Source: an uncultured Candidatus Saccharibacteria bacterium
GTDB taxonomy: Bacteria > Patescibacteriota > Minisyncoccia > Phycocordibacterales > UBA1006
Direction: 5' to 3'
Assembly (NCBI GenBank): GCA_964507625.1
Contig: CAZDPR010000001.1
Location: forward strand, 81,499 to 145,498
DNA length: 64,000 nucleotides
In this document: positions 1-25,015 of the stretch, one piece after another
Layout: each line of letters begins with the position of its first letter
Numbering within the stretch: position 1 is the first letter of the stretch
Position numbers and translations under genes: made by a program
Notes under the pieces: generated by a model
Seen by the model: the letters and a program-made list of their open reading frames with translations, nothing else
What the model was told of the DNA's origin: nothing
The model's database searches: none

Positions 1-111
1 AGCAGATTCAAAATATTTGTCAAGTGTTTTCCTATATTGTCTAAAATCTCCAACAACGGTGCTCAATTTATTGAGGACTTTCGATAAAAATTAAATATTC
101 ATTTTGTCAAA

Positions 112-154
112 AATAAGTCTATTATGTTTAAAATAATAGACTTATTTATTTTTA
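112..154 (+). terminator. Intrinsic terminator-like hairpin (AATAAGTCTATTAT...ATAATAGACTTATT) followed by a T-run; it ends the transcript coming in from upstream of the window
   Basis: 14-bp inverted repeat followed by TATTTTT, read directly. Confidence 0.4.
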
Positions 155-223
155 AAAAATACTTATAAAATAATCTTATTTTTGTATTTATTCAAAATAC
201 TTGTCAATTTTTGTTGGAAATAC

Positions 224-252
224 TTGACAAATATTTTGAATTATGCTAACCT
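224..252 (+). promoter_or_regulatory. Extended -10 sigma70-like promoter P1: TTGACA (224-229), 17-nt spacer, TGcTAACCT (244-252). An upstream half-repeat AATACTTGTCAA lies at 196-207
   Basis: Motif read directly. Near-identical architecture recurs at 6598-6626 (TTGACA-17-TGaTAACAT). Confidence 0.5.
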
Positions 253-254
253 AT

Positions 255-660
255 GGGTACGAGCATGGGACAGATCATGTTCGGAGATCGCGAGAGAAAA
301 CAAAACTATCTGTCTCATTCAGGTAGTCACAATCTTCAAGTTAAGTTCCCCCGATATCAGCTCAGCGTACTGATATCAGGAATACTTAACTTGAACTCGA
401 TTTTGTTCTTTTGAGAGCCGGTTTATCGTTACGGCATGTAGGGTAAGTGGATCATAAAGGCTCCTCGAGGCCTCCGATCTGCGAATAGCTTGGGAATTAT
501 CACCCCAAGAGTTACAGGGTATGGTTCTGTGCGCACAGGATCATAAAGAACTCTGACCGACCACAACGATGAGGGGGCAAACGAGCTGATTACTCGTCTC
601 GTCTTGGTAACAAGACAAAATTGCTCCAATCGGAGAAGCGCCAATCGCGCGCTTCTCCTT
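255..660 (+). ncRNA. Candidate structured non-coding RNA (family unassigned), ~50% GC against ~33% background. Several nested hairpins, e.g. 343-391 GTTAAGTTCCCCCGATATCAG...CTGATATCAGGAATACTTAAC, 520-532 CTGTGCGCACAG, 601-616 GTCTTGGTAACAAGAC
   Basis: Sharp local GC jump in an AT-rich genome. Sits immediately downstream of promoter P1 and has no credible ORF. Flows directly into the first conserved cassette module. Confidence 0.35.
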
Positions 661-717
661 TCTATCAGGATCTCGAACTCTTTCGAGGTTCTGTAGAAAG
701 GTTGTTCTTTGAAAAAG
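632..717 (+). repeat. Cassette junction module copy 1: GC hairpin GGAGAAGCGCC...GGCGCTTCTCC plus T-run, conserved hairpin ATCTCGAA-CTCT-TTCGAGGT (670-689), CUGUAGAAA, GTTCTTTGAAAAAG (704-717)
   Basis: Recurrent module aligned by eye across 8 copies. Arms of the conserved hairpin show compensatory substitutions and position-conserved U-G wobbles on the + strand. Confidence 0.7.
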
Positions 718-768
718 TTTGGTTTGGTTATTTTAGTTTCTTTATGGAGATTAAAATAACCAAACCAG
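718..768 (+). repeat. Long perfect hairpin (17-bp stem TGGTTTGGTTATTTTAG/TTAAAATAACCAAACCA) directly 3' of GTTCTTTGAAAAAG. Homologous, with covariation, to the hairpin at 5683-5737
   Basis: Perfect inverted repeat. Compensatory changes relative to 5683-5737 (G->A paired with C->T; TTTTAG/TTAAAA -> TTTCAG/TTGAAA). Confidence 0.6.
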
Positions 769-982
769 AGACCTGATTGCTTTTTGCACAGGCCTCTCTC
801 TTCTCTTTTTTCTCATGCGTGCTTGGACAAACCCTAAGACTAGTCGTAGAACCTGAGGTCATATAAAACTTCATGATATCAGTGACTAGTATAGGAAGCC
901 GTAACTAGATTGATAAAATCTAGTGAAAACTAAATATATTTACTTGTTGAGTGAATACATTTAGATGTTTGTCCAAATCTTG

Positions 983-1095
983 CCAAGAATGAATTGTTAG
1001 TGTTTGTTAAACACGTATAATAACAGTTCATTCTTGGAAACAAGATTTTTTTATCAGGGTCTCAAATTTATTTGAGGTTCTGTAGAAAAATTCAT
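983..1095 (+). repeat. Cassette junction module copy 2 (divergent): hairpin CCAAGAATGAA...TTCATTCTTGG plus T-run, then conserved hairpin variant GTCTCAAAT-TTA-TTTGAGGT (1059-1077) and CUGUAGAAAAA
   Basis: The CGAA/TTCG to CAAA/TTTG double substitution preserves pairing, which is strong evidence for selection on RNA structure. Confidence 0.6.
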
Positions 1096-1119
1096 TTTCA
1101 AAAATTAAATAAACATAAA

Positions 1120-1398
1120 ATGAAAAACTTTAAAGGATTAACCGGTAGTGATGCAAAATTAGAGTTTGCATTGTGTGTATTACATGCAATACCTAATCAG
1201 AACACTGAGGAAATTACTCAGTTATGTCAAGAGGCTCGTGAAGCGGAGATTATTCCAGATCTTGATTTGGAAAAATTGAAAGCTGAAGCACTTGAGATTC
1301 TCCCAACTGCACAATTTTTTTACCCTACTGGTAAAGAAGCAGAAATGAGAAGGTTTCAAGATTTCCGAGACCGTATCCTTGCAATGGCAATGGAATAA
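1120..1398 (+). CDS. Hypothetical small cassette protein (93 aa from MKNFKGLTG...). The tracked ORF start at 1072 lies inside the conserved hairpin, so I moved the start to the ATG at 1120
   Basis: ORF track 1072..1398, internal ATG chosen. No recognisable domain. Confidence 0.4.
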   Translation: MKNFKGLTGSDAKLEFALCVLHAIPNQNTEEITQLCQEAREAEIIPDLDLEKLKAEALEILPTAQFFYPTGKEAEMRRFQDFRDRILAMAME

Positions 1399-1429
1399 AG
1401 GGTAGGTGATTCTAAAAAATCTACCCCTC

Positions 1430-1591
1430 ATACTCCGTTACCCCGTAAGGTAACTCCTCGCATTGGTGGCTAACAAAAATGTGGAGTATCTGTGGCACCT
1501 CTGATTACATCAGAAAAGCCACACCTGTCCTGGAATGTACTATTCCAGCTGATGAGTCCAAAAGGACGAAACAGGGTGTTCTTTGAAAAAG
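1430..1591 (+). repeat. Cassette junction module copy 3 (hammerhead variant): conserved stem UACUCC[GUUACC-CCGUAA-GGUAAC]...GGAGUA, hammerhead ribozyme, then GTTCTTTGAAAAAG (1578-1591)
   Basis: Block shared with 5540-5682. Same downstream motif and hairpin as the other modules. Confidence 0.7.
1520..1579 (+). ncRNA. Hammerhead ribozyme, type III topology. Stem III 5' strand CACCUGU, cleavage triplet GUC (1527-1529, predicted cut after 1529), stem I CUGGAAU-GUACU-AUUCCAG, core CUGAUGAG, stem II UCC-AAAA-GGA, then CGAAAC plus stem III 3' strand AGGGUG
   Basis: All invariant hammerhead core nucleotides (CUGAUGA, GAAA, GUC) are present in the correct order, with three helices of proper polarity. 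The second copy at 5610-5669 differs only in the stem I loop. Confidence 0.8.
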
Positions 1592-1593
1592 AG

Positions 1594-1647
1594 ATTGGTT
1601 TGATGAATTCAGTTTTTTCTGAAAATTGAATTCATCAAACCAAACGA
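1594..1647 (+). repeat. Long perfect hairpin (18-bp stem TTGGTTTGATGAATTCAG/TTGAATTCATCAAACCAA) immediately 5' of the next cassette ORF
   Basis: Perfect inverted repeat read directly. Same position as the hairpins at 718 and 5683. Confidence 0.55.
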
Positions 1648-1649
1648 TC

Positions 1650-1907
1650 ATGAAATATTTAATATTTGCAGCCTTGTCAACATTACTGTCTATCGGCGCT
1701 CTGATGACTTTTTCTCAAACAGATGAAAAATTCTCTCTGATATTTGGGGTTATATTTGGCGCAATGTCGATCAGTTGGTTGGTTAACTTTTATTACGACC
1801 GTAAAATAAATCGTCGTAATAAAAAAAGAATTAGCTTTGCTAATTCTTTTTTTATTGTGCTTGTTGCCAAAAATTTTCAAAAATCGTTACAAAAAATTCA
1901 TATATAG
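1650..1907 (+). CDS. Hypothetical small membrane protein (two predicted TM helices). Start moved to the MKYLIF ATG at 1650
   Basis: ORF track 1626..1907, hydrophobic stretches. The 3' end overlaps the convergent TrmB gene. Confidence 0.3.
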   Translation: MKYLIFAALSTLLSIGALMTFSQTDEKFSLIFGVIFGAMSISWLVNFYYDRKINRRNKKRISFANSFFIVLVAKNFQKSLQKIHI

Positions 1908-2628
1908 ATTTATTGGTAATAATAACAGATCTCAAACCTTTATCCCAAATGGTTATAGAAACATGATTTTTCCAAATTGAAATATTGAGGTTCGGGTTAA
2001 ATAGTGACTGGGGTAATGTACGGATCTCGCGTAACTTTGTTTTAGATCTCTTCTTCTCCTCCGCTGCTAATGGAGAATCTGACATAATCATACGAGCAGT
2101 AATATTCTTTTTTCTACGGAGATCGCCATAAGTCTTTAAACGTTCTCGAGCAACCGTAAATGTTTCTGTTGCCCCCGAAAAACGTAACACCTCGCCATAT
2201 TTTTCTTGTTCCAACGATCTAAAAAAAGTTTCTACAAAACCATCTTCACCTTCGAGATGTTCGACGTCAATTTGCTCGGAATTACCTCGTAAAGCAAAAA
2301 AGGCGCGCAGTTCAGGGAGAATGAGGTCAATCTCTAATTTCTTTTTAGTAACCAGGGCTTCCTCGTGTTCTATAAAATTTTTTAATTTTTCTGGCTTTTC
2401 AACATAAACCATTCGACGTTTACCAATAGTAGTTGTTCCCAGAACCCCTCGCTCAACGAGTTGCTCAATAGCAAGATGGATGGTAGACCGGGGAAGACCG
2501 GTTCCTTTTGCAATATCGGCAATATTTGAGAAACCATTTTTAAACAAGTAGAAAATACTTTGTTGTTCAGCAAAGTCAAAACCGATTTCTTTAAGAGAAT
2601 CTTTTAATTTTTTTGGTATTTCAATCAT
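1852..2628 (-). CDS. TrmB-family winged-HTH transcriptional regulator
   Basis: N-terminal HTH (FYLFKNGFSNIADIAKGTGLPRSTIHLAIEQLVERGVL) typical of the TrmB family. It is the only minus-strand gene inside the cassette array. Confidence 0.55.
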   Translation of the reverse strand: MIEIPKKLKDSLKEIGFDFAEQQSIFYLFKNGFSNIADIAKGTGLPRSTIHLAIEQLVERGVLGTTTIGKRRMVYVEKPEKLKNFIEHEEALVTKKKLEIDLILPELRAFFALRGNSEQIDVEHLEGEDGFVETFFRSLEQEKYGEVLRFSGATETFTVARERLKTYGDLRRKKNITARMIMSDSPLAAEEKKRSKTKLREIRTLPQSLFNPNLNISIWKNHVSITIWDKGLRSVIITNKSIYEFFVTIFENFWQQAQ

Positions 2629-2672
2629 GCTGTAAGTATAGCATTTTTATTTTAAAATGACAAATATTTTTG

Positions 2673-2704
2673 ACATTTATTAAAAATACATATAAATATC
2701 AATA
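2673..2704 (+). promoter_or_regulatory. Promoter-like TTGACA-17-TAAATA in the divergent AT-rich intergenic region between the TrmB gene and ORF 2750
   Basis: Motif read directly. Confidence 0.3.
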
Positions 2705-2749
2705 AAATAAATACTTTTTTAAAAAAGTATAACAAAAATCGTTGTTAAA

Positions 2750-2998
2750 ATGCTTGACTTATTAAAACTATTATGCTACAATGTTTTTAAGAAGATGAGG
2801 AATAACTATCCGCGAGATCCTGATTCTGTTGCTCTTTGTGAACTATTCGAAAGGAATATCCCCAGCATCATTTATAAAACGGAGATGGTGTTTGGAATAT
2901 TCCTTTCGAGGAGAAAGATTGGAAAGGCAGGTCCCTCTGCCGGTTCGGGAATTCCATGGACAGTTTTGAGCGTGCCACCGTTCAGACTCTTCGAGTAA
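2750..2998 (+). CDS. Hypothetical protein (82 aa)
   Basis: ORF track only. Confidence 0.25.
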   Translation: MLDLLKLLCYNVFKKMRNNYPRDPDSVALCELFERNIPSIIYKTEMVFGIFLSRRKIGKAGPSAGSGIPWTVLSVPPFRLFE

Positions 2999-3153
2999 TT
3001 ATTTGTTTTTACGAATAAGAACTTGATGTTGGTTTTTCAAACAAAATGGGCGGGTGAAGCAGTTCTGGTGGACGGAATCCTAGTATGGAAATTGGTAAAG
3101 GATTACGGTTAAGAAATCGTTCTCTTTTATTAAAGACCATAGTAAAGCTTCGG

Positions 3154-3244
3154 GAGAAGTGGGTGTTTTTAACAACCACTTCTCCTTTCTATCAGGATCT
3201 TAAATTTGTTTGAGGTTCTGTAGAAATATTTGTTCTTTGAAAAG
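3154..3244 (+). repeat. Cassette junction module copy 4: GGAGAAGTGG...CCACTTCTCC hairpin plus T-run, conserved hairpin ATCTTAAAT-TTG-TTTGAGGT (two U-G wobbles), CUGUAGAAA, GTTCTTTGAAAAG
   Basis: Alignment with the other copies. The arm substitutions here are tolerated only as RNA wobbles, which fixes the functional strand as +. Confidence 0.7.
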
Positions 3245-3317
3245 AGATGAAGTGAATATCTTGGATATTACCTTTTTAAACGTTTGTGTAGTATCCAGTA
3301 TATTCACTTCATCTTTA
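3241..3317 (+). repeat. Long hairpin (AGATGAAGTGAATAT...ATATTCACTTCATCT) 5' of the small ORF at 3330
   Basis: 15-bp perfect stem read directly. Confidence 0.5.
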
Positions 3318-3329
3318 AACCCATAAACT

Positions 3330-3488
3330 ATGTCCCAAAGGGAAGCACTTAAAGTAGCAGATATGTTGTTGGCCAAAAAAGGATTTAATCCTGACGGCAC
3401 CCCAAAAGGTAAGGGGCGGAAAAAGTCTCAGTCGTTCTTCGAAAGGAGGATGATCAAGACTGTCCCTATGGGTGGAAAGGTACGATAA
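3330..3488 (+). CDS. Small basic ORF (52 aa, MSQREALKVADMLLAKKGF...). Not in the ORF track because it is under 60 aa
   Basis: Correct cassette position just after the hairpin. Translated by hand. Confidence 0.2.
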   Translation: MSQREALKVADMLLAKKGFNPDGTPKGKGRKKSQSFFERRMIKTVPMGGKVR

Positions 3489-3695
3489 ACCTTTCCACCT
3501 GCATCCCTTGCAGGTTTTGACAGAGTCAAAGGGAAAATTCTAATCATCAGATCGATGTCGTTGTTGTCTATCCGTTTTACGAAAGTAAATGGTGAGCCAC
3601 AGGGAGCAGAACCTGATGAAATCATAACCAGTACGGTTGTGATCTTTATCCAAATCATGAAGCAGTTCGTGGTTTGGTAGAGAAACAGTCAAAAA

Positions 3696-3747
3696 ATGAG
3701 TTTGGTGAAATGAGGTAATTCTAGAAGCCTCACTTCACCAAACTCAC
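3696..3747 (+). repeat. Long perfect hairpin (ATGAGTTTGGTGAAATGAGG...CCTCACTTCACCAAACTCAC) ending 6 nt before the start codon at 3753
   Basis: 20-bp stem read directly. Confidence 0.5.
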
Positions 3748-3752
3748 TCACT

Positions 3753-4055
3753 ATGACTAATATGTTCGTTTCATTATCAGGATGGCAAACAGGTCGCGAA
3801 ATCGTGGAACACGATGGAAAACTGTATTTTGAGGTGGCAGAACAAGGCCACTGCAGTATCTGTCAGTCGAGGATTGATCACGTACGTGCCGTAGTTGCAC
3901 GCAAGAAATTGCAGGTAACTTATGGTCATTTACTAGATCGATTTCCGCGCGATGCACGCACCCTGTGGGTAGGATTAGAGAAACCGAAGTCAGAGATGAA
4001 TAGCGGGGAGGTGAAAGCCTTTTTCCGCGAAAACTTAGAACTTCCGATACTCTAA
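3753..4055 (+). CDS. Hypothetical cassette protein (100 aa). A C-x2-C motif suggests a possible small zinc-binding fold
   Basis: ORF track. Followed immediately by the conserved 3' element at 4070. Confidence 0.4.
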   Translation: MTNMFVSLSGWQTGREIVEHDGKLYFEVAEQGHCSICQSRIDHVRAVVARKKLQVTYGHLLDRFPRDARTLWVGLEKPKSEMNSGEVKAFFRENLELPIL

Positions 4056-4069
4056 CTTGTCGTATGTCT

Positions 4070-4260
4070 CCGGACCGGTTTCACACTACCCAATAGTACG
4101 GGTAGCCGGTTGGCAACAGAAAGTAAGTAATGCCTGCTGTGAAGCATGTATATACTGAAAAAGTGAAGCGGAGAAGTGAATGCTAAAACATTCACTTCTC
4201 ATTTTTATCAGGATCTCGAACTCATTCGAGGTTCTGTAGAAATATTTGTTCTTTGAAAAG
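4070..4260 (+). repeat. Cassette junction module copy 5, full length: 3' element CCGGACCGG..CTACCC-AATAGTAC-GGGTAG-CCGGTTGGCAACAG, terminator hairpin GAGAAGTGAATGC...TCACTTCTC plus T5, conserved hairpin ATCTCGAA-CTCA-TTCGAGGT, CUGUAGAAA, GTTCTTTGAAAAG
   Basis: Over 90% identical to 4684-4874. The 5' 55 nt also match 5404-5459. Confidence 0.75.
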
Positions 4261-4261
4261 A

Positions 4262-4312
4262 GTTTAATTGGTTACATAAGTTTTTTATGAAGATTTATGT
4301 AACCAATTAAAC
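4262..4312 (+). repeat. Long perfect hairpin (GTTTAATTGGTTACATAA...TTATGTAACCAATTAAAC) ending 10 nt before the ATG at 4323
   Basis: 18-bp stem read directly. Confidence 0.5.
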
Positions 4313-4322
4313 AAATAACACC

Positions 4323-4676
4323 ATGTCAGCTTTAAACATACATACACTGATTATTCTGAGAACACAATTTTCTAACCGATTTGAAGGTCCTAAGCCTGCG
4401 TCCCTTACCTATAGTGCAGTTTATTATGGAAATGATAGGGCATATGTTGAATATTACAATGAGAATCTTGTTGATGAAGTGGCTACACAGTGTGATTTTT
4501 GGGAGTGCGTAAACAGATATTGCGAAGAGTTTTTTATTAATGTTAAGGTTCTGGATGAGGTAGATGAAAAAGAAAAAATTGAAGAACATTTAACAAAATT
4601 AATAACTGACAAGATCGTGAAATTAGCCGGTAGACCACTCGGATCATCATTTCGAAATATTAATAAAGATTCTTAA
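4323..4676 (+). CDS. Hypothetical cassette protein (117 aa)
   Basis: ORF track. Flanked by modules on both sides. Confidence 0.4.
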   Translation: MSALNIHTLIILRTQFSNRFEGPKPASLTYSAVYYGNDRAYVEYYNENLVDEVATQCDFWECVNRYCEEFFINVKVLDEVDEKEKIEEHLTKLITDKIVKLAGRPLGSSFRNINKDS

Positions 4677-4683
4677 TACAATT

Positions 4684-4874
4684 CCGGACCGGTCTCACAC
4701 TACCCAATAGCAAGGGTAGCCGGTTGGCAACAGAAAGTAAGTAATACCTGCTGCGAAGCATGTATATACTGAAAAAGTGAAGCGGAGAAGTGAATGCTAA
4801 AGCACTCACTTCTCATTTTTATCAGGATCTCGAACTCATTCGAGGTTCTGTAGAAAGACTTGTTCCTTAAAAAG
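4684..4874 (+). repeat. Cassette junction module copy 6 (full length, near-identical to copy 5)
   Basis: Direct comparison with 4070-4260. Confidence 0.75.
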
Positions 4875-4963
4875 AGAACGAAAGCAGCTAGCAACTTATT
4901 AGATCCGGTTGATAAAACCCCACGATAAGGCGTGGAAAACTGGCATTCAGCTGGTCCGGAATT

Positions 4964-5395
4964 TTGCTTATGGAGAATATTATTCTTAATAAGACGGAGG
5001 ATTCTTCTTTCATCACTATCTCTAAAGACTTCATACCTCGATTGACTTACTTTGTTGTCAAAACATGGGACAGTTATTGGGGTGGTTATCATGAGGTCGG
5101 AGTGAAAACTCTTACCTTAATGGATAAGGATTGTGGTGTTACTCTAAAAGATCTCAAAAAGGCTATTTCGAGAAGAGGATTAGGTGCAAAGATTGTAAAA
5201 GAAAGTCATTCACATAATGGCGATGAACAATCTTTTTACTGGTCTCTTAAGGAGTGGTTCCCTGTCTATAAGATAGGTAATGAGTATTATGTCTATGCTT
5301 TTGACAAAGCTCAGTTTGGTGGTGTTGGAATTACTTTTCAACATGTAAACCATCGGGTAGCGGAAGAGCTGGATATTTTAGAGCAATTTTACTAG
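4964..5395 (+). CDS. Hypothetical cassette protein (143 aa)
   Basis: ORF track. Confidence 0.4.
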   Translation: MLMENIILNKTEDSSFITISKDFIPRLTYFVVKTWDSYWGGYHEVGVKTLTLMDKDCGVTLKDLKKAISRRGLGAKIVKESHSHNGDEQSFYWSLKEWFPVYKIGNEYYVYAFDKAQFGGVGITFQHVNHRVAEELDILEQFY

Positions 5396-5403
5396 AAGAT
5401 CCT

Positions 5404-5682
5404 CCGGACCGGTTTCACACTACCCAATAGCACGGGTAGCCGGTTGGCAACAGAAAGTACCTTGCTTGCGAGGGAAAAAGTGAAAAGGGAATCAGGTTGT
5501 GCCCTCAATAAGGAAAGACAACCACCATATATTGCTCCGTTACCCCGTAAGGTAACTCCTCGCATTGGTGACTAACAAAAATGTGGAGTAAGCGGACGTT
5601 GAACAACATCCGCACCTGTCCTGGAATGGAGTATTCCAGCTGATGAGTCCAAAAGGACGAAACAGGGTGTTCTTTGAAAAAG
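5404..5682 (+). repeat. Cassette junction module copy 7 (hammerhead variant): 3' element CCGGACCGG...GGCAACAG, then divergent linker, conserved UGCUCC[GUUACC-CCGUAA-GGUAAC]...GGAGUA block, hammerhead, GTTCTTTGAAAAAG (5669-5682)
   Basis: Shares its 5' part with copies 5 and 6 and its 3' part with copy 3. Confidence 0.7.
5610..5669 (+). ncRNA. Hammerhead ribozyme, type III, second copy. GUC at 5618-5620 (predicted cut after 5620), stem I CUGGAAU-GGAGU-AUUCCAG, CUGAUGAG, UCC-AAAA-GGA, CGAAAC-AGGGUG
   Basis: Identical core to 1520-1579. Only the stem I loop (GGAGU versus GUACU) and the distal stem III differ. Confidence 0.8.
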
Positions 5683-5737
5683 TTTGATTTGGTTATTTCA
5701 GTTTCTGTATGGAAATTGAAATAACCAAATCAAATGA
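5683..5737 (+). repeat. Long perfect hairpin (TTTGATTTGGTTATTTCAG...TTGAAATAACCAAATCAAA). A covarying homolog of the 718-768 hairpin
   Basis: 19-bp stem. Paired compensatory substitutions relative to copy 1. Confidence 0.6.
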
Positions 5738-6031
5738 ATATGAGTATTAAGCGCGCACGAGATCGTATTTGCCGAAAGGCATAGAGATTATCAAAAATCA
5801 CCCTTACACTCTTAAGGTTTTGTCATTGACATGAGTATTGGGTTTTGTCCCCATCTTACCTAAAAGATGGAGAGCCATGAAAAAGCAGATTTTCATATGA
5901 GTAAACATATTAAAAAATCCACCAAATTGTTGTGTACAGGCGTTTGGTTGGCAGGAGTTATTTTTTTATTTATTCCACGCGGAGCCAGAGTCTCTGTCGG
6001 GTTTATTTAAAAAAAAAGATGTTCTGTCATT

Positions 6032-6120
6032 GAGAAGTGTTTGCCTGGGTGAACACTTCTCTTTTCTATCAGGATCTCGAACCACTTCGAGGTTCTGCAG
6101 AAATAGTTGTTCTTTAAATC
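6032..6120 (+). repeat. Cassette junction module copy 8: GAGAAGTGTT...AACACTTCTC hairpin plus T-run, conserved hairpin ATCTCGAA-CCAC-TTCGAGGT, CUGCAGAAA, GTTCTTTAAATC
   Basis: Alignment with the other copies. Confidence 0.65.
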
Positions 6121-6597
6121 ACAAAAAACTTTAAAATGGAAACTAAAAAACCAAGGGATAGACTTCGAACTATCTAATGAGTTCTTACGCAGAACTCACC
6201 CTTTTAGTCGCTTATCAGTTCGATATTCCTGAAACGATATATGGAAGTGGCAACATCATGATGCTAGCTTAATTGTTAATTAGGTTAGAAGATTGGTGAG
6301 TTTTCGCCGGTTTAAGTGCCGGGATAGTCCCTCTCACTATAAATGTCTAGATCCGTCAAGGGTTGAGGACATAATGAGAGATGCCAAACTGATAGGGGTT
6401 ACGGAAATTAACCTCGCTCTATAAGTTTCCATGTACTGGGTTGTACAGTAAGCGAAATGAGTAAATTTTCCGTTTTTGTTCACTAAACCTTTTATTTGAT
6501 AGATTGGAAAGTTGTTAACTTTCCAATCATCATAAAAGTTTTATTAAATTCTCTAAAGAAGGCCTAATATAGGTTTTTTATTGTATTTATTTTGTAC

Positions 6598-6626
6598 TTG
6601 ACAAAAAAATTAAAATATGATAACAT
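6598..6626 (+). promoter_or_regulatory. Extended -10 promoter P2: TTGACA (6598-6603), 17-nt spacer, TGaTAACAT (6618-6626). A paralog of P1, including the shared TACTTGACAAA context
   Basis: Direct motif comparison with 221-252. Confidence 0.5.
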
Positions 6627-6633
6627 GTATTTA

Positions 6634-6755
6634 AGTCAGTGGTGGAATTTGTTATCAAAATGACAAACTATTCCTGTTAGGAGAAAAGTCCACACAAATC
6701 TCCCTGTTAGGGGGTAAAAACAAAATCTAAAACCACCCTTCCGGGTGGTTTTTTA
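6634..6755 (+). promoter_or_regulatory. ~120-nt leader transcript from P2 ending in an intrinsic terminator (ACCACCC-UUCC-GGGUGGU plus U6 at 6732-6755), 50 nt upstream of the 799-aa gene. Candidate attenuator, riboswitch-like leader or small RNA. Contains the repeated CCUGUUAGG(A/G)G motifs
   Basis: Promoter, leader, terminator and gene in sequence. Upstream GUGGUGG (6642-6648) could alternatively pair with the terminator 5' arm. Confidence 0.4.
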
Positions 6756-6806
6756 CTGATATTATTTTTTATAGGAATCCGTTTCTTATGATATAATAAA
6801 GTTATT

Positions 6807-9206
6807 ATGAAAGAATCGTTTCTACCTGCAAAAAAAACAAATAATAATGAAATATTAATTACTCTAGAATATATTCCTGGAATGCAACCACAAGAAATAA
6901 TATTGGAAAAGTTTACCCCTGAGGAGCAAAAGGTAATAGAAGATCGCAAGGAAATATTAAAAACAATCGTAGGGGCTGTTTCAGGTAATTACTCTATTCC
7001 CGTTGTATTAGGGTTGCCTGAAAGGGTGGGAGATTCAGGTTGGCGTCATGTAAAGTTAAAAGATGGACGTGAATTCATACAACTGAATGCTCATGATATT
7101 TTAACCAAAGAAATGGATTTTTTACGGTTTGTAACAGCTCATGAGGCTGGACATCAAGCAATCACTAAATGGGATTTTATCTTTGACGATCCGGAACTTA
7201 CAGAACTATATACAAATACAACAGGATTTGCATATTTATTAAATTGCACAGAAGATCCTCGGGATAATAATTATGTTGCAGAAGTTTATGAGCCGTTTAC
7301 AGAAGTAATGAAATTAGCATATCGTTTACAAGAAGAATACACAGAAGATATGTTAATTGAAATAAAAAAGAAAATGGGGTTTATTCCAAGACATATATTA
7401 GCAGGTATGGAATATATTCAGCAATGGTACCGTGAATCTCAAACATTACCTTTTGCGATTAATTCTGATTTACCAGGTGATGTGTATGAAGTAGTTCAAA
7501 AAACATTACCATACGCAAAAGATTCATGGTGGAGATTTCCATCCAAAGAAGAGGTTGTTCGTAATCCAGACATTATTCATAAATATGCTCGCATATATTT
7601 TGATATTAATTTAAAAAAAATTTGGCCAGAATTTGCAAAATTAGTAGAAAAAGATAAAAAAGATCAACAGGTACAACAAATGTTGAAAAAGATGAGTCGC
7701 GAACAAAAAGATCAAGAAATTGAGTTGCCTCCTTGGCTTCAAGAGATTTTAAACGAAGAGGATCAAGAGTTTTTAAAAAAAATTTTGCGTGAATATTTGA
7801 AAATGCTCAAAAAGGCAGAACAGGCAGATAAAGAAGAATTGTTGAGTGATCCTGAAAAAAAACAAGAAGATTCAGATTCAGATTTAGAAGAAGGAGAAGA
7901 GGGGGTGGAGACAGGCCCAAACAACAACCCTTCTCCAGAAGAGTCTGATACAGAGAATACAGAGAATACAGGGAATACAGAGAATACAGAGAATACAGAG
8001 AATACAGAGAATACAGAGAATACAGAGAATACAGAGAATACAAAGAATACAGAGAATACAGAGAATACAGATTTACAGAAGAAAGATATTCCGTTTGATT
8101 TAGATCAATTGCCAGATGATTTAAAAGATAAATTAAGTGAAGGTATAGATAAGAATATGGACCCAGGAGAACGTGAAGAGTTAGAAAAAGAGTCAGAAAA
8201 AGCAATAAAAGAGTTAGACGAAGAGATTATTAAAAAAATACAAGACCAAACGAAAAACGATACAAAGAATTATAATGAATCAAAAAAAAGTAATAATGAA
8301 GAGGTTAAAAAAGAAGTTGAACTAAAAGATAAAAGAAAAGAAATTGAAAAAAAACTAAAAACATTTGAAGAAGGACTTGATGAATTGTTCAAATTGAAAG
8401 AAGATTTCAAAAAACAAACTGAAGTGGTTCCTGATAATAAATACCAAAAAGCGCGTCAAGAAAACTTTGAAATAATAAAAAAACTAGAAAATGATTTACG
8501 TATGATTTTTAAGAGTAGACGAGAAGGGTTGACTCAAAAAAATCTTCCCTCTGGTTCACGTATTAACATGTTTAAAAGAATTCAAGAAAAAGCACGTGGG
8601 ATTAGTGTAGTGGAATCACGAGCGTATGAACGAAAAATTTTACCTCAAGAAAAAGATTATGCAATTACGTTATTAGTAGATCTTTCCGGTTCAATGAGCG
8701 ATAAAATAGAAGAAACATTTGCCGGAGTTGTTGCAGTTACTGAATCATTGCATCGACTAGGAATCAAAACAGAAATTTTAGGGTTTAACCATCTCATGTT
8801 TGAATTTAAGAAATTTAATGAAAAAATGACAAGTAAAATACAAGATAAGATGGGTGAAATGATTAATGCAGTAAGTCAACCGGGTGCAAATGGTAATAAT
8901 GATGGTTATGCAGTACTAATTGCATCAGAAAGATTAAAAAAGACTAATGAAAAAGAAAAGATTTTAATTGCTTTTTCAGATGGTCAACCCAATCCTTCTG
9001 GTGAGTATAGTGGTGATAAATATGAGCTAACTAATGTGATTAGAAAAACTAAAGCAGATAACACTATAAAATTAGTAGGAGTTGGTTTAGGAGAAGGAAC
9101 TGATCATGTGTCGCATTATTATCCAAAAAGTGCTGCAAATATTCCCATAAATGATTTATCGAAACAATTAGCAAGAGTGATACGTGAAGCAATTGAAGAA
9201 AATTAA
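6807..9206 (+). CDS. Three-part protein: N-terminal HExxH zinc metallopeptidase-like domain (HEAGH at 7140-7154), central acidic coiled-coil linker with an (ENT)n repeat, and C-terminal von Willebrand factor A domain with the MIDAS motif DLSGS (8679-8693) and the AFSDGQP motif
   Basis: Motifs read from the translation. This architecture (putative metallopeptidase plus vWA, as in DUF2201-type proteins) is the usual partner of MoxR AAA+ ATPases. Confidence 0.7.
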   Translation: MKESFLPAKKTNNNEILITLEYIPGMQPQEIILEKFTPEEQKVIEDRKEILKTIVGAVSGNYSIPVVLGLPERVGDSGWRHVKLKDGREFIQLNAHDILTKEMDFLRFVTAHEAGHQAITKWDFIFDDPELTELYTNTTGFAYLLNCTEDPRDNNYVAEVYEPFTEVMKLAYRLQEEYTEDMLIEIKKKMGFIPRHILAGMEYIQQWYRESQTLPFAINSDLPGDVYEVVQKTLPYAKDSWWRFPSKEEVVRNPDIIHKYARIYFDINLKKIWPEFAKLVEKDKKDQQVQQMLKKMSREQKDQEIELPPWLQEILNEEDQEFLKKILREYLKMLKKAEQADKEELLSDPEKKQEDSDSDLEEGEEGVETGPNNNPSPEESDTENTENTGNTENTENTENTENTENTENTENTKNTENTENTDLQKKDIPFDLDQLPDDLKDKLSEGIDKNMDPGEREELEKESEKAIKELDEEIIKKIQDQTKNDTKNYNESKKSNNEEVKKEVELKDKRKEIEKKLKTFEEGLDELFKLKEDFKKQTEVVPDNKYQKARQENFEIIKKLENDLRMIFKSRREGLTQKNLPSGSRINMFKRIQEKARGISVVESRAYERKILPQEKDYAITLLVDLSGSMSDKIEETFAGVVAVTESLHRLGIKTEILGFNHLMFEFKKFNEKMTSKIQDKMGEMINAVSQPGANGNNDGYAVLIASERLKKTNEKEKILIAFSDGQPNPSGEYSGDKYELTNVIRKTKADNTIKLVGVGLGEGTDHVSHYYPKSAANIPINDLSKQLARVIREAIEEN
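7950..8071 (+). repeat. In-frame 9-bp tandem repeat (GAGAATACA) of about 13.5 units encoding (E-N-T)n. One unit is GGGAATACA and one is AAGAATACA
   Basis: Read directly. The minus-strand ORF 7807..8205 is an artefact of this repeat. Confidence 0.85.
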
Positions 9207-21757: not shown

Positions 21758-21771
21758 TAACTTATCAAATT

Positions 21772-22479
21772 ATGAAAACAAACATTTTTAATTTCATACT
21801 CATCGGAACACTCCTAATGACAGGGGTTGTTTCTGCGTTTGAGGAACCATTATTTTTACCTGGGGCAACAGGACCGAGCCCAATTGATACTGGTGCAACT
21901 ACACAGATAAAACAAGGTAATTTTTGGGCGCGATCATTAAAAGCCGGTTTTAATCAGGTTCGCGCAGAACTCCCGGCAATACTTTCAGGTTTTATTATTG
22001 CTGATACGCGTGCAGTAGCACCATATGGATATTTTATAACAGCGGTCCTTCCAGGAAATAGTGGTCAGTTTCTTTCTCAGTTACGATTAGGGTCTCCGGT
22101 AAATAATTTATTTAATGCAGTTTTCACAAATCGTGCCCCTGCAACATTGGATTTAGTAGGTCGTGGTAGCGCTGGATCACAAAAATCTCGTGATGCAGTT
22201 GCTTTTCTTGCAGACCCTGCGGTTTGTACTGAACATGTAAACATGATCACCAATACCCCCGCATTTCATTTTTGGAGTGATTATAATAGTGATTCTGCAG
22301 ATATTTTGGCACGACAGATTCAATTGTCAGGAGGTAATCCTGGAGCAGGAAAAGTATTACTATCGGTTGATAATCAAGGAAATGCAACCTGGGGAACAGT
22401 AATAGTTGATTCATTAGGAAATCCTCAGTACCAAAAAAGTTCATCAATTGTAGCGACAGGTCAAACACTCTGTCCATAA
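21772..22479 (+). CDS. Secreted paralog family member A (signal peptide MKTNIFNFILIGTLLMTGVVSA)
   Basis: Shares its 5' ~80 bp and the conserved block ADILARQIQLSGGNPGAGKVLLSVDNQGNATWGT with the next two genes. Confidence 0.55.
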   Translation: MKTNIFNFILIGTLLMTGVVSAFEEPLFLPGATGPSPIDTGATTQIKQGNFWARSLKAGFNQVRAELPAILSGFIIADTRAVAPYGYFITAVLPGNSGQFLSQLRLGSPVNNLFNAVFTNRAPATLDLVGRGSAGSQKSRDAVAFLADPAVCTEHVNMITNTPAFHFWSDYNSDSADILARQIQLSGGNPGAGKVLLSVDNQGNATWGTVIVDSLGNPQYQKSSSIVATGQTLCP

Positions 22480-22485
22480 TGTATT

Positions 22486-23445
22486 ATGAAAACAAATATT
22501 TTTAATTTCATACTCATCGGAACACTCCTGACTACAGGGGTTGTTTCTGCGTATCAGCAACCACCATTTAACCCGCCGTCTGGAAATGTTGATTCCATAG
22601 TACAAAGTGGTCAAGCAGAACAAAAAAAACAGGGAGATTTATGGGCAAAAACTCTTAAGACTGGATTTAATACTATTTCAGGCGGTTCAGTAAGCTTATT
22701 AGGATATGTAATTGGTGATGTGTTAGGAATCACAAAAAATTCTTTTTTTACCCAATTAGTATTACCTGGTAGCAGTTCACAGTTGCGTATCGGTAATAAT
22801 GGAGGATCAATTGATACTAATAAAAAACTTTATGATTATGTATTTAATAGAAAAACAGAACTTGAAACATTGCTACAAAACAATCGAGCACCGCTCACAG
22901 TAGATCTTTCAGGTCGTGGCGCACAGGGAACAGATGCATCGCGTAATGCTGCAGCACTTTTCTCTAACAAGACAAATATTTGTACGACTAACACTACGAT
23001 TGTAGCAGCGAACACTCCCGCGGTTCGATTCGCAAGTGACTATAGAGACCAAACAACCGCAGATATTCTAGCCCGACAGATTCGATTAAAAGGAGGTAAT
23101 CCAGGAGAAAATAAAGTATTGGTTGCGGTAGATAACCAAGGAAATGCAACTTGGGGAACATTAGTATTTACACCAGTATTTGGAAATGAAATTGGTAGCG
23201 CCTGTGTTGATAATCCAGATTATGTAGGTCCTCCAAATCAAACAGCCTGTGGTGCACTTGGTGACGGGAGTGATTGTCCTCCATGTAACACTCTAAGTCA
23301 ATCAGTTTGTGGTATGGGAATTATGAATCATTGTCGTTGGGAAATTTCAAGAAGTTCAGGATCAGGAACTACGGTAGTTGGTATGAACGTTACCGTACAA
23401 TATGATCAATCCCCAGTAAAAATTTCACAAGCTATGTGTAATTAA
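22486..23445 (+). CDS. Secreted paralog family member B
   Basis: Same signal peptide and conserved blocks (ADILARQIRLKGGNPGENKVLVAVDNQGNATWGT). Confidence 0.55.
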   Translation: MKTNIFNFILIGTLLTTGVVSAYQQPPFNPPSGNVDSIVQSGQAEQKKQGDLWAKTLKTGFNTISGGSVSLLGYVIGDVLGITKNSFFTQLVLPGSSSQLRIGNNGGSIDTNKKLYDYVFNRKTELETLLQNNRAPLTVDLSGRGAQGTDASRNAAALFSNKTNICTTNTTIVAANTPAVRFASDYRDQTTADILARQIRLKGGNPGENKVLVAVDNQGNATWGTLVFTPVFGNEIGSACVDNPDYVGPPNQTACGALGDGSDCPPCNTLSQSVCGMGIMNHCRWEISRSSGSGTTVVGMNVTVQYDQSPVKISQAMCN

Positions 23446-23455
23446 TATGTGTATT

Positions 23456-25015
23456 ATGAAAACAAACATTTTTAATTTCATACTCATCGGAACACTCCTA
23501 ATGACAGGGGTTGTTTCTGCGTTTGAAGAACCATCAGCTGGTTTTCCAAAAGGTGAGGCAAATGCCCCGGTACATATCGGTTCTGTGCAACAGGCAAAAT
23601 CAGGTGAATTTTGGTCTCGTATTATGAAATCCGGACTATCTATAGTACTACCTTCATCTGCTGATGTGGTTGCAGGATTTTTTGCAGCTGATGAAGCACT
23701 GGTTTCACCTCAAGGATTTTTCACACGAATATTATTACCAGGCAATAAATCATTTTTACGGGTAGGAACTATAACAAATGGTCTCTATCAATCCCCTGCA
23801 TCACAAATCGCACCGTTTATGGTTGATCTTTCAGGGCGAGGTACCCAGGGATCTAATACCTCTCGTGATACTTTAGCAATTATGGCAGATTCTGCAGTTT
23901 GTACTCCACATGTGAATTTTATTACCAATACCCCTGCATTTAAATTAGTGAGCAATGTTAACAATGGAGGGAGTGCAGATATTTTGGCACGACAGATTCA
24001 ATTGTCAGGAGGTAATCCAGCACCAGGAAAAGTCCTCGTTTCTTTTGATGGGCAAGGGAATGCAGTTTGGGGAACTCCTAAAATGGTTAAAAATGGAAAT
24101 AATTGGGTTCTATCATTTGATTACAGCGAATCACCAGTTTTTGTCGGACAGAATATTTGTCAGGCCCCAGATGTGTGTCCAAACATTCCAGGTCTTCAAA
24201 CAACAGTACCAGCAGGATATAGTCTCCAAAATGGTCAGTGTATTCAGGATCCAGTTGATGTATGTCCAAATATTGACGGACTTCAAACCACTGTACCGTC
24301 TGGTTACATTCTCCAAAATGGTTTGTGTGTTCGAGAACCAAAAGGTTATTGGGAGCCTGTTACCCAAAACTTAAAAAATATAAATTGGTCTACTGGCCCT
24401 AACTTAGTCTATGCTCCAAAGAATTTTCAAGAATGTGCAGAATATTTGAAATCAGTAGGTGGATATGATCATCCATTGCGTGTTTCTCGATATACAAATA
24501 ACTATGCCAATATTGGTACGCTTAGTAAAAATATGAACTCCCGTGAACTTATGCTTCCTTTGGGAGGAGGAAATACAATTGCGACAAATAATATTGTAAC
24601 AAGTAGTACATCAACACTTAATAATTCACCTGAAGGATTTTGTCTCTATCGTGCCCAGGTGGTTTATACTCCAGGAGATCCGGCAAAACCAAATAATCCT
24701 ATTCCAGTAAATGGAATCTGGGACTCTGCAGTTCCAACAGTTGATTTTAATTCATATTGGAAAGTCGAATGTTTAGTTCTCCCTGTTGGGGAAAAACCTC
24801 CAACGAATGAAAAATGGTCTGATACAACATGGTGGATTAAAAATACCAATCAACCAAATAAGATAAAACAATGGAGGCCTTCAATTAGTTGTACTCCTAT
24901 TGATAAGGTACAAGGCGGGTTTTGTTCAGGAAATCCTCCACTGATGAATCCTTCTATGTGTGCAATTACTCCAAGAGAGAATCCATACCAACTTCAATAT
25001 TATCGAGAAGAATAG
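23456..25015 (+). CDS. Secreted paralog family member C, with a C-terminal Cys-rich extension and an internal tandem duplication (CPNIPGLQTTVPAGYSLQNGQC / CPNIDGLQTTVPSGYILQNGLC)
   Basis: Same signal peptide and blocks. Start moved to MKTN. Confidence 0.55.
   Translation: MKTNIFNFILIGTLLMTGVVSAFEEPSAGFPKGEANAPVHIGSVQQAKSGEFWSRIMKSGLSIVLPSSADVVAGFFAADEALVSPQGFFTRILLPGNKSFLRVGTITNGLYQSPASQIAPFMVDLSGRGTQGSNTSRDTLAIMADSAVCTPHVNFITNTPAFKLVSNVNNGGSADILARQIQLSGGNPAPGKVLVSFDGQGNAVWGTPKMVKNGNNWVLSFDYSESPVFVGQNICQAPDVCPNIPGLQTTVPAGYSLQNGQCIQDPVDVCPNIDGLQTTVPSGYILQNGLCVREPKGYWEPVTQNLKNINWSTGPNLVYAPKNFQECAEYLKSVGGYDHPLRVSRYTNNYANIGTLSKNMNSRELMLPLGGGNTIATNNIVTSSTSTLNNSPEGFCLYRAQVVYTPGDPAKPNNPIPVNGIWDSAVPTVDFNSYWKVECLVLPVGEKPPTNEKWSDTTWWIKNTNQPNKIKQWRPSISCTPIDKVQGGFCSGNPPLMNPSMCAITPRENPYQLQYYREE

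Follow-up and report, generated by a model that had tools for sequence, protein, structure and literature searches.

A modular RNA leader at the head of a ribozyme-punctuated array of small genes in a Patescibacteria genome

The stretch of DNA analysed here, which we call the window, comprises 64,000 nucleotides (nt) of contig CAZDPR010000001.1 (assembly GCA_964507625.1, positions 81,499 to 145,498 of the forward strand) from an uncultured Candidatus Saccharibacteria bacterium. Positions 250-660 of the window are a non-coding, strongly folded RNA leader that heads a ribozyme-punctuated array of tiny genes. The leader is a string of separable modules, not one monolithic RNA, and its core is an RNA family absent from Rfam 15. 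The window is a bacterial chromosome segment with genes for RNase Y, NusA, trigger factor and RecJ, and its relatives are metagenome-assembled genomes (MAGs) of Patescibacteria.

A folded, non-coding leader

The GC content of 251-650 is 40-53% per 100-nt interval, as against 12-22% immediately upstream (51-250) and ~35% for the window overall, in which most 500-nt intervals lie at about 27-43%. The predicted minimum free energy (MFE) of the RNA from 250-700 (+) is -167.2 kcal/mol, with z = -7.1 relative to 100 dinucleotide shuffles; z is -4.8 for 259-631 (+), which excludes the junction hairpins, and -5.6 for the minus strand. A sequence-only reading of this DNA had described a GC-rich island full of stable hairpins and palindromes, lying downstream of an extended -10 promoter, heading the cassette transcript and running without a break into a conserved junction module. 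Each part of this description agrees with our results: all of the hairpins and palindromes that it named are present on direct reading, the long hairpin that it placed at 343-391 reaching 335-395 when fully extended, and the region is promoter-proximal, lies upstream of the array and is continuous with the first junction module (D2 copy 1, 644-727).

The same reading saw no plausible open reading frame (ORF) here and no signature of RNase P, tmRNA, SRP or glmS, and on both points the searches concur. The only ORFs in the leader, 253-414 (+) and 429-644 (-), encode 53 and 71 amino acids (aa) and have no Pfam match at E<=1; tblastx of the leader against 13 homologous leaders returned nothing except self-palindromes, and the conserved motifs fall in different frames in the window leader, in its divergent paralogue within the window (leader B) and in the related loci L002 and L005. 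A decayed gene or pseudogene was rejected on these grounds: there is no conserved frame, no Pfam match and no tblastx similarity among the 13 leaders. Rfam 15 at gathering score finds only a tRNA in the whole window, and at E<=10 positions 1-1500 give only microRNA-type noise of 26 bits or less. No Rfam 15 score comes near threshold for RNase P, tmRNA, SRP, 6S, glmS, OLE, GOLLD, ROOL, HEARO or raiA, nor for T-box, EAR, Y RNA, c-di-GMP-II, twister, pistol or hatchet. The homologous leaders of L002 and L010-L012 are likewise negative in Rfam, and searches that included the stretch with the repeats D6 and D11 gave tRNAs and hammerheads only. Two suspected likenesses, of block c (GUGGGACGC, GCAAAGCC) to c-di-GMP-II and of D11 to twister, were not borne out by the Rfam searches.

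The promoter, P1, recurs as the layout TTGAC(A/T)-N14-TGnTAnnnT at the same place in 13 homologous leaders. It is missing from a generic promoter scan of the window because TAACCT fits only 3/6 positions. Transcription would start at about 259. The 13-mer TGACAAATATTTT has five matches at no more than one mismatch, against 1.06 expected, and four of the five lie in the two array promoter regions; one of these sits within TGACAAATATTTTTGACA (2658-2675). On this distribution the 13-mer is likely to be an operator, and the TrmB-like winged-helix protein encoded between the two arrays may be what binds it. A similar arrangement, ATGACAAAT...TGACA, is seen upstream of the TrmB-like gene in L002, L007, L009, L010 and L017.

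Modules conserved at the RNA level

Related loci were collected by three routes. A D2 pattern scan of genome representatives found one Patescibacteria MAG (L002), and the same scan of metagenomes gave one informative sequence, met on opposite strands as L004 and L005, along with a GC-rich chance match (L003); 64 homologues of the TrmB-like protein led to contigs L006-L021. The anatomy in Table 1 comes from a comparison of 13 leaders; a MAFFT alignment of whole leaders was too noisy for use. From its 5' end the leader consists of a terminal hairpin (H0), a CGCGAGA motif, a long irregular hairpin (M1), a core of ~220 nt, a GC-rich hairpin that shares the label P1 with the promoter (P1 hairpin below) and the helix D2, which belongs to the first junction module.

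Three of these modules carry compensatory changes. Over seven copies (the window, L005, leader B, L002, L006, L010 and L014), M1 is 92.9% paired versus 33-47% in slid controls, with compensatory changes in 11 pairs. The 3' domain of the core, in seven credible copies, is 85.9% paired versus 37-52% in slid controls and has 14 compensatory pairs versus 2-5; none of 500 shuffles reaches the observed values, and the signal agrees across four helices. For D2, 19 copies from 10 loci are 90.5% paired versus 35-52%, with 12 compensatory pairs. The G-U pairs give the strand. One pair of M1 is U-G in 5/7 copies and three positions of D2 are G-U or U-G in 11-13 of the 19 copies, which fits a plus-strand RNA; the frequent G-U and U-G pairs of M1 and D2 would be A-C on the other strand. 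The compensatory changes and strand-specific G-U pairs in these three modules therefore show that they act as RNA on the plus strand. The sequence-only reading had proposed to look for conserved homologues and for covariation, and both were found.

By eye, other leaders have a GAAGAU/AUCUUC hairpin at the position of H0, formed from a conserved 5' UAAGAAGAUGAG. The CGCGAGA motif takes the form CCGCGAGAU in L005, leader B, L002 and L010; in L009 it comes after D2. In M1 a mismatch, C-A or C-U, is conserved and the apical loop varies. Between M1 and the core lies a variant of the GUUCUUUGAAAAAG box, which in the arrays comes after every junction module and hammerhead.

The core was found in the window and in four other contigs (L002, L010, L011 and L012), with two copies each in L010 and L012, and consists of three islands whose order is identical in every copy. 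Island 1, present in 8-9 copies, opens with the stem Ha, in which alignment by eye shows a compensatory swap between GCCAG/CUGGC (L010, L011 and L012) and GGCAG/CUGCC (L002 and leader B). Island 2, again by eye, has (G/A)AUAG and a stem element in 7/7 core copies; its hairpin Hb is CUUGGAG/CUCCAAG in L012 and CCUAAGGAG/CUUCUUAGG in L010. The hairpins between the islands vary more: for Hc no homologous block was found among the copies and the sequence is not conserved, and at the position of Hd a hairpin of other sequence is present in L011, L012 and L010. Island 3, the 3' domain, combines a hairpin with a three-way junction, and its unpaired CUGACCGAACAAAAUGG and junction residues are strongly conserved. 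A covariance model of this domain, R1, built from five copies, scores the window site at 70.7 bits, L002 (outside the seed) at 41.7 bits (E about 1e-6) and the second L012 copy at 24.4 bits; it finds the domain in the window, L002, L010 (twice), L011 and L012 (twice). On window positions 1-7000 its second-best match, at 12.8 bits, is the expected place in leader B, where the 3' domain looks like a degenerate paralogue under this model. A pairing of the Ha loop with the 3' domain (AUCGUU 425-430 with AACGAU 565-570) has 6 bp in the window, a value reached by 24 of 2000 shuffles, and in the comparison of own with crossed partners the difference is weak (3.9 vs 3.0 bp), so that a pseudoknot here is a suggestive lead only.

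The distribution of the modules shows them to be separable. In L011 and L012 the core occurs but M1 does not; in L006 and L014 M1 occurs but R1 detects no 3' domain; L009 and L017 have neither M1 nor that domain. The second core copy of L012 lies inside the array, downstream of a hammerhead, in a locus where the core, P1 hairpin, D2 and a small membrane-protein ORF have been duplicated as one set; the second copy of L010 abuts an ORF start with no D2 between. The M1 copy of leader B shares 70 nt with L005 at 100% identity, between unrelated flanks. Homologous leaders are always co-oriented with orphan small-ORF arrays beside a TrmB-like gene. The proposal of a large unclassified non-coding RNA thus stands in part: the region is structured, promoter-proximal, non-coding and outside Rfam, but it is not a monolithic RNA of ~400 nt, nor is it peculiar to this array head.

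Beyond these loci, blastn of 250-720 against phage and plasmid collections found no match, and the D2 pattern scan found none in viral contigs. A viral scan with a 17-mer from block c returned 63 phage contigs, mostly from one metagenome; they score only about 19 bits under R1 and so are unrelated, as are the matches to a second viral pattern. A protein search with a 57-aa fragment from upstream of the L005 leader gave one 99-aa protein on a 501-nt contig, which was uninformative, and an exact-protein look-up of the window's TrmB-like gene gave only a 1.7-kb contig that ends at repeats. In L005 a distant TrmB-like paralogue lies upstream of the leader.

At its 3' side the leader meets the junctions of the array. 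Positions 1-6500 hold two transcription units flanking the TrmB-like gene, in which small orphan ORFs and non-coding stretches are parted by repeated junction modules. D2 occurs at six junctions in the window, with a core helix of 5'-CCUUUCUA-U-CAGGAUCUCGAA-loop-UUCGAGGUUCUG-UAGAAAGG-3', and is strongly conserved in sequence even though the genes of the compared loci are only ~65% identical. Two further junctions are occupied by type III hammerheads, so assigned from their sequence: both have a complete CUGAUGA...GAAAC core, three stems and a GUC cleavage triplet, and score below the gathering score of 48.5 bits (E 1.7e-6 and 8.6e-8). Hammerheads recur in the arrays of L006 (about 8975-9030, minus strand), L011 (6398-6452, minus strand) and L012 (7009-7063, minus strand), and across loci they score 37.6-41.2 bits with complete cores. 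D2 and the hammerheads are alike in having a hairpin before them and, after them, GUUCUUUGAAAAAG and a long AT-rich hairpin, followed by the next ORF; the arrangement of box and AT-rich hairpin that follows D2 copy 1 is also found after the hammerhead at 5613-5668. These shared surroundings make D2 the positional equivalent of a self-cleaving ribozyme, and the leader, bounded by D2 in the hammerhead slot, is probably released as unit 0 when the polycistronic transcript is processed. There is precedent for clusters of gene-flanking hammerheads that cleave polycistronic RNA (Perreault et al., 2011; PMC3088659).

The P1 hairpin, which lies 0-16 nt past the three-way junction in most copies, probably serves as a 3'-end hairpin after processing. 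It was picked up, with equivalents at 4171 and 6032, by a terminator scan that found 10 terminator-like hairpins against 4.5 expected. Its 3' arm and linker (650-666 and equivalents, CACUUCUCCUUUCUAUC in several copies) resemble what we take to be the 3' tail of 16S rRNA, and the conserved purine blocks of the leaders, including AAGGAGGUGAGG in L010, could pair with this tail-like segment. Variant junction hairpins with the D2 architecture and different compensating stems (UAUCCAAAUCAUGAA-GCAG-UUCGUGGUUUGGUAGAGA) are seen at window 3637-3683, L005 1286-1332, L007 430-463 (minus strand), L009 about 8365-8400 (minus strand) and L010 about 7290-7335 (minus strand), and L010 has a third type. Two more repeated non-coding modules lie 3' of cassette ORFs: D6 (4068-4125, 4682-4739 and 5402-5459; ACCGG...CUACCC-loop-GGGUAG...CCGGU) and D11 (1433-1488 and 5535-5590; CUCC-hairpin-...GGCUAACAAAAAUGUGGAG). 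Neither has an Rfam match, and they may be elements of 3' untranslated regions or further processing motifs.

Table 1. Positions in the window of the leader, its modules and associated features.
Feature	Position	Strand	Description
Promoter P1	224-252	+	-35 TTGACA (224-229), 17-nt spacer, extended -10 TGcTAACCT TGCTAACCT (244-252)
13-mer TGACAAATATTTT, inverted pair	194-206; 225-237	-; +	Second copy overlaps the -35
13-mer TGACAAATATTTT, further copies	10-22; 2658-2670	-; 	Second copy in the TrmB/array-B intergenic region
H0, 5'-terminal hairpin	260-283	+	CGAGCAUG/CAUGUUCG; MFE fold, compared by eye
CGCGAGA motif	289-295	+	Conserved among leaders
M1	335-395	+	Long irregular hairpin, about 24 bp; alignment of 7 copies
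GUUCUUUUGAG	405-415	+	Variant of GUUCUUUGAAAAAG box
Core island 1	417-447	+	Ha (GCCGG/CGGC, 417-435) and purine block AUGUAGGGUAAG (436-447); by eye
Hc	447-482	+	Variable hairpin with GAGGCCUC palindrome; MFE
Palindrome GAGGCCTC	467-474		Read in sequence
Core island 2	484-509	+	AAUAG, then hairpin Hb (CUUGGG/CCCAAG); by eye
Hd	521-544	+	10-bp hairpin around CUGUGCGCACAG; MFE
Palindrome CTGTGCGCACAG	527-538		Read in sequence
Core island 3 (3' domain)	544-631	+	Hairpin and three-way junction; model R1
3' domain hairpin	553-573	+	CUGACCG/CGAUGAG
P0	574-580 with 621-627	+	GGGGCAA with UUGCUCC; three-way junction
hp1	581-597	+	Arm of three-way junction
hp2	601-616	+	GUCUUG-GUAA-CAAGAC, GNRA loop; arm of three-way junction
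Palindrome GTCTTGGTAACAAGAC	601-616		Read in sequence
P1 hairpin	632-658	+	10 bp, GC-rich, GGAGAAGCGC/GCGCUUCUCC then UUUCUAUC; terminator-like in scan
D2 junction hairpin	657-701	+	18-20 bp helix, bulged U (665), loop CUCU; first conserved junction module
GUUCUUUGAAAAAG box and AT-rich hairpin	704-770	+	Box 704-717, long hairpin 718-770; D10 repeat
Type III hammerhead	1522-1577	+	Array junction; RF00008, 41.2 bits
Type III hammerhead	5613-5668	+	Array junction; RF00008, 41.2 bits
TrmB-like winged-helix regulator gene	1852-2628	-	Pfam TrmB, E 2.9e-6; marker gene beside arrays
Leader B	2754-3228	+	Divergent paralogue, divergent from TrmB-like gene; 2783-3170 without the promoter and the end of D2
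Leader B, promoter	2754-2782		
Leader B, M1 copy	2847-2916		
Leader B, 3' domain	3024-3111		Degenerate in appearance (model R1)
Leader B, P1 hairpin and D2	about 3150-3228		

Proposed role of the leader and alternatives

On balance we think that the leader heads a processed polycistronic transcript as its non-coding first unit and is a cis-acting, factor- or ligand-binding element that sets passage, survival or processing of the RNA into the cassettes. Transcription would start near 259 from the extended -10 promoter, whose -35 is overlapped by an operator-like 13-mer that also occurs in the intergenic region of the TrmB-like gene, and the RNA would fold as it is made into the 5'-terminal hairpin, the long M1 hairpin and the ~220-nt core (Ha, Hb and the hairpin with its three-way junction). 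The leader RNA would end in the P1 hairpin, left as a protective 3' hairpin, and the D2 helix would be the probable point of separation from the downstream cassette RNAs. Binding of a factor or ligand by the leader would then set how much of the transcript passes, survives or is processed beyond P1 and D2. We favour a role in cis because every core copy has ORFs downstream of it in the same orientation, and because the core can abut an ORF and has been duplicated together with its ORF; we take D2 as the presumptive separation site since the array uses D2 and hammerheads interchangeably.

Several points weigh against this view. Three related leaders (L006, L009 and L017) do without the core altogether, and the core is known from 5 genomes and 8 copies only, all of one clade. 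The alignment of islands 1 and 2 was made by eye, as was the comparison of H0; covariation tests on related sequences can overstate support, and the alignment of the 3' domain was fitted to its model. No convincing mutually exclusive pairing of a terminator with an antiterminator was found by inspection. The genes downstream of the core are unrelated orphans (a small membrane protein, a lipoprotein-like protein and others) with no Pfam, PHROG or PADLOC family. The U-rich tail of the P1 hairpin is also the 5' strand of the lower stem of D2, and the hairpins before hammerheads have no such tail, so the terminator likeness may be incidental. An antiterminator pairing against the P1 hairpin (UUGCUCC with GGAGAAG) is plausible in the window, is not conserved in L010-L012 and was rejected.

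A further step, which we put forward only tentatively, is that the core (Ha, Hb, the hairpin and three-way junction, perhaps with the pseudoknot; ~220-360 nt) might be a new functional RNA class, either a ligand- or protein-sensing switch or a director of processing. It would control an undescribed type of array in which orphan small-protein cassettes are exchanged between strains and their RNAs are parted by hammerhead and D2 modules that can stand in for each other. The three-way junction, the covariation and the conserved junction residues, seen in only 7-8 copies, might belong to an aptamer-like fold. The downstream ORFs share no functional class, and such unrelated genes argue against a classical metabolite riboswitch.

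It is also conceivable, if rather doubtful, that the leader is a stable RNA of ~400 nt, released by processing at D2 or by termination at the P1 hairpin, that acts elsewhere, for example as a sponge or scaffold for a protein. Hairpins close both of its ends (H0 and P1), it is flanked by processing-type elements as every other unit is, its modules shuffle like cassettes (as the M1 segment shared with L005 between unrelated flanks illustrates), L010 and L012 have tandem core copies, and in L007 a gene for Ro60/TROVE, whose products bind structured RNAs, adjoins the TrmB homologue. However, every copy of the element has a co-oriented ORF array downstream, the second L010 copy continues directly into an ORF, and no partner protein gene is consistently linked to it, the TrmB-like regulator excepted. 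There is neither a terminal stem like that of Y RNAs nor an Rfam match to Y RNA or YrlA. A bacterial Y RNA was rejected as such: in the predicted folds the 5' end does not pair with the 3' end, and Ro60/TROVE occurs in L007 only (2111-3688, minus strand).

Processive antitermination of the HK022 put or Bacillus EAR type, in which the leader would modify RNA polymerase to read through the P1 hairpins at every junction, appears improbable. Like those systems, the locus has a structured RNA just past the promoter (in 13 leaders) and a long, hairpin-rich operon with terminator-like hairpins, here with U-rich tails at junctions 632, 4171 and 6032. Unlike them, it shows no similarity in sequence or structure to catalogued antiterminator RNAs (Rfam negative), one core copy, the second of L012, is internal to its array, the arrays of L006, L009 and L017 have no core, and the P1 hairpins have weak U-tracts that also form one strand of a D2 stem.

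Two readings we regard as very unlikely. The first holds that the 3' domain, P1 hairpin and D2 form a new self-cleaving ribozyme, or part of one, that does the hammerheads' job, for which the position of D2 in the hammerhead slot and the strong conservation of the unpaired CUGACCGAACAAAAUGG and junction residues could speak; Weinberg and co-workers reportedly found new ribozyme classes in 2015 by looking near hammerheads, which also counts in its favour. But most D2 copies (1033, 4187, 4801 and 6048) have no upstream 3' domain, so the function of D2 cannot depend on that domain, and the helix of D2 is nearly perfect, lacking any internal loop in which an active site could lie. The second, which has just as little to commend it, places the function at the DNA level, with D2 as attC and the head as attI of an integron-like platform, or else treats the region as a decayed gene or imported GC-rich DNA with functionless hairpins. 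Promoterless small cassettes between imperfect palindromes with an extrahelical base, and a content that differs between relatives (L006 lacks units), recall integron attC sites and the Vibrio VCR, and the GC content is above background. Against this, the divergent gene is a TrmB-like regulator in every related locus and not a tyrosine recombinase, the D2 consensus UAUCAGGAUCUCGAA...UUCGAGGUUCUGUAGAAA is without RYYYAAC/GTTRRRY core sites (R''/R'), conserved G-U pairs and hammerheads in equivalent slots point to one-strand RNA whose structure is kept by compensatory changes, and there is no protein-level similarity by Pfam or tblastx. The integron platform is rejected because no integrase is present in the divergent position, core sites are absent and it is as RNA that the structure is conserved.

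The array, its neighbours and known systems

Nine loci (L002, L006, L009-L012, L014, L016 and L017) share the order RNase Y, array (on the strand opposite the TrmB-like gene) and TrmB-like gene. The cassette ORFs of the window (1120-5395) encode 52-143 aa and have no Pfam, PHROG or PADLOC family, except for a weak Tmemb_14/holin-like match of 1650-1907. They have no Shine-Dalgarno sequence, and each start codon lies about 10 nt past a hairpin of 50-75 nt. Cassette content varies between close relatives: L006, at 83% protein identity, has no units corresponding to window 3244-3752 and 4316-5401. Next to the TrmB homologue there is a Shedu SduA_C nuclease in L019-L021, and integrase or resolvase genes occur in L012 (12532-13447), L013 (11793-13112) and L017 (9620-11248). 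With neighbours of the TrmB-like gene varying in this way, the interval from RNase Y to TrmB has the appearance of a variable island. The array ends with a 13-codon mini-ORF (METKKPRDRLRTI), conserved in L006 (MQTKKPRDRIRTI), and then about 300 non-coding nt that have 76% identity to L006; this segment (6137-6480) may be another leader peptide or structured RNA. Elsewhere in the window, a 9-nt tandem repeat (ATACAGAGA, about 14 copies, 7921-8098) lies in frame within a 799-aa VWA-domain ORF (6807-9206), and three adjacent paralogous ORFs (21769-25015) nearly coincide in sequence at their 5' ends (82 nt, 90-99% identity), which specify one and the same signal-peptide-like N-terminus, with further internal repeats at 22297, 23059 and 23975.

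The closest parallel is with clustered hammerheads (Perreault et al., 2011; PMC3088659), where, as here, type III hammerheads lie between small, varying genes and imply the cutting of a long transcript into gene-length RNAs. Unlike that case, most junctions here consist of a D2 helix and a P1 hairpin, the array is at a fixed chromosomal locus beside a TrmB-like gene in Patescibacteria, and the structured leader has no counterpart. With orphan leader RNAs and riboswitch candidates the leader shares its promoter-proximal position, its co-orientation with ORFs, a junction of several helices whose unpaired nucleotides are conserved, tandem copies in some cases and a terminator-like 3' hairpin; it differs from them in that the downstream genes share no function, no platform for alternative pairing was found in it, it is modular and partly dispensable among relatives, and it belongs to no Rfam family. 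RNase III processing hairpins are known from the early mRNA of phage T7 and from rRNA operons. D2, with ~20 bp between cistrons, is comparable, and its size and position would suit a double-strand-specific endonuclease; in contrast to such hairpins, D2 is strongly conserved in sequence and its position is interchangeable with that of a self-cleaving ribozyme.

What is new is the RNA family that forms the leader core and a second, uncatalogued junction element, while the processing logic of the array is known in part. Patescibacteria are mostly uncultured episymbionts; to our knowledge, bacteria have few large structured RNAs that are conserved, and next to nothing has been reported on non-coding RNA in Patescibacteria (the Candidate Phyla Radiation, CPR). 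The leader provides a defined RNA with a covariance model, heading a hypervariable array of orphan small proteins that contains ribozymes. Should the leader prove to sense a signal or to direct processing, it would reveal how these reduced genomes regulate a set of genes that varies between strains, and D2 could be a new processing signal or a new ribozyme.

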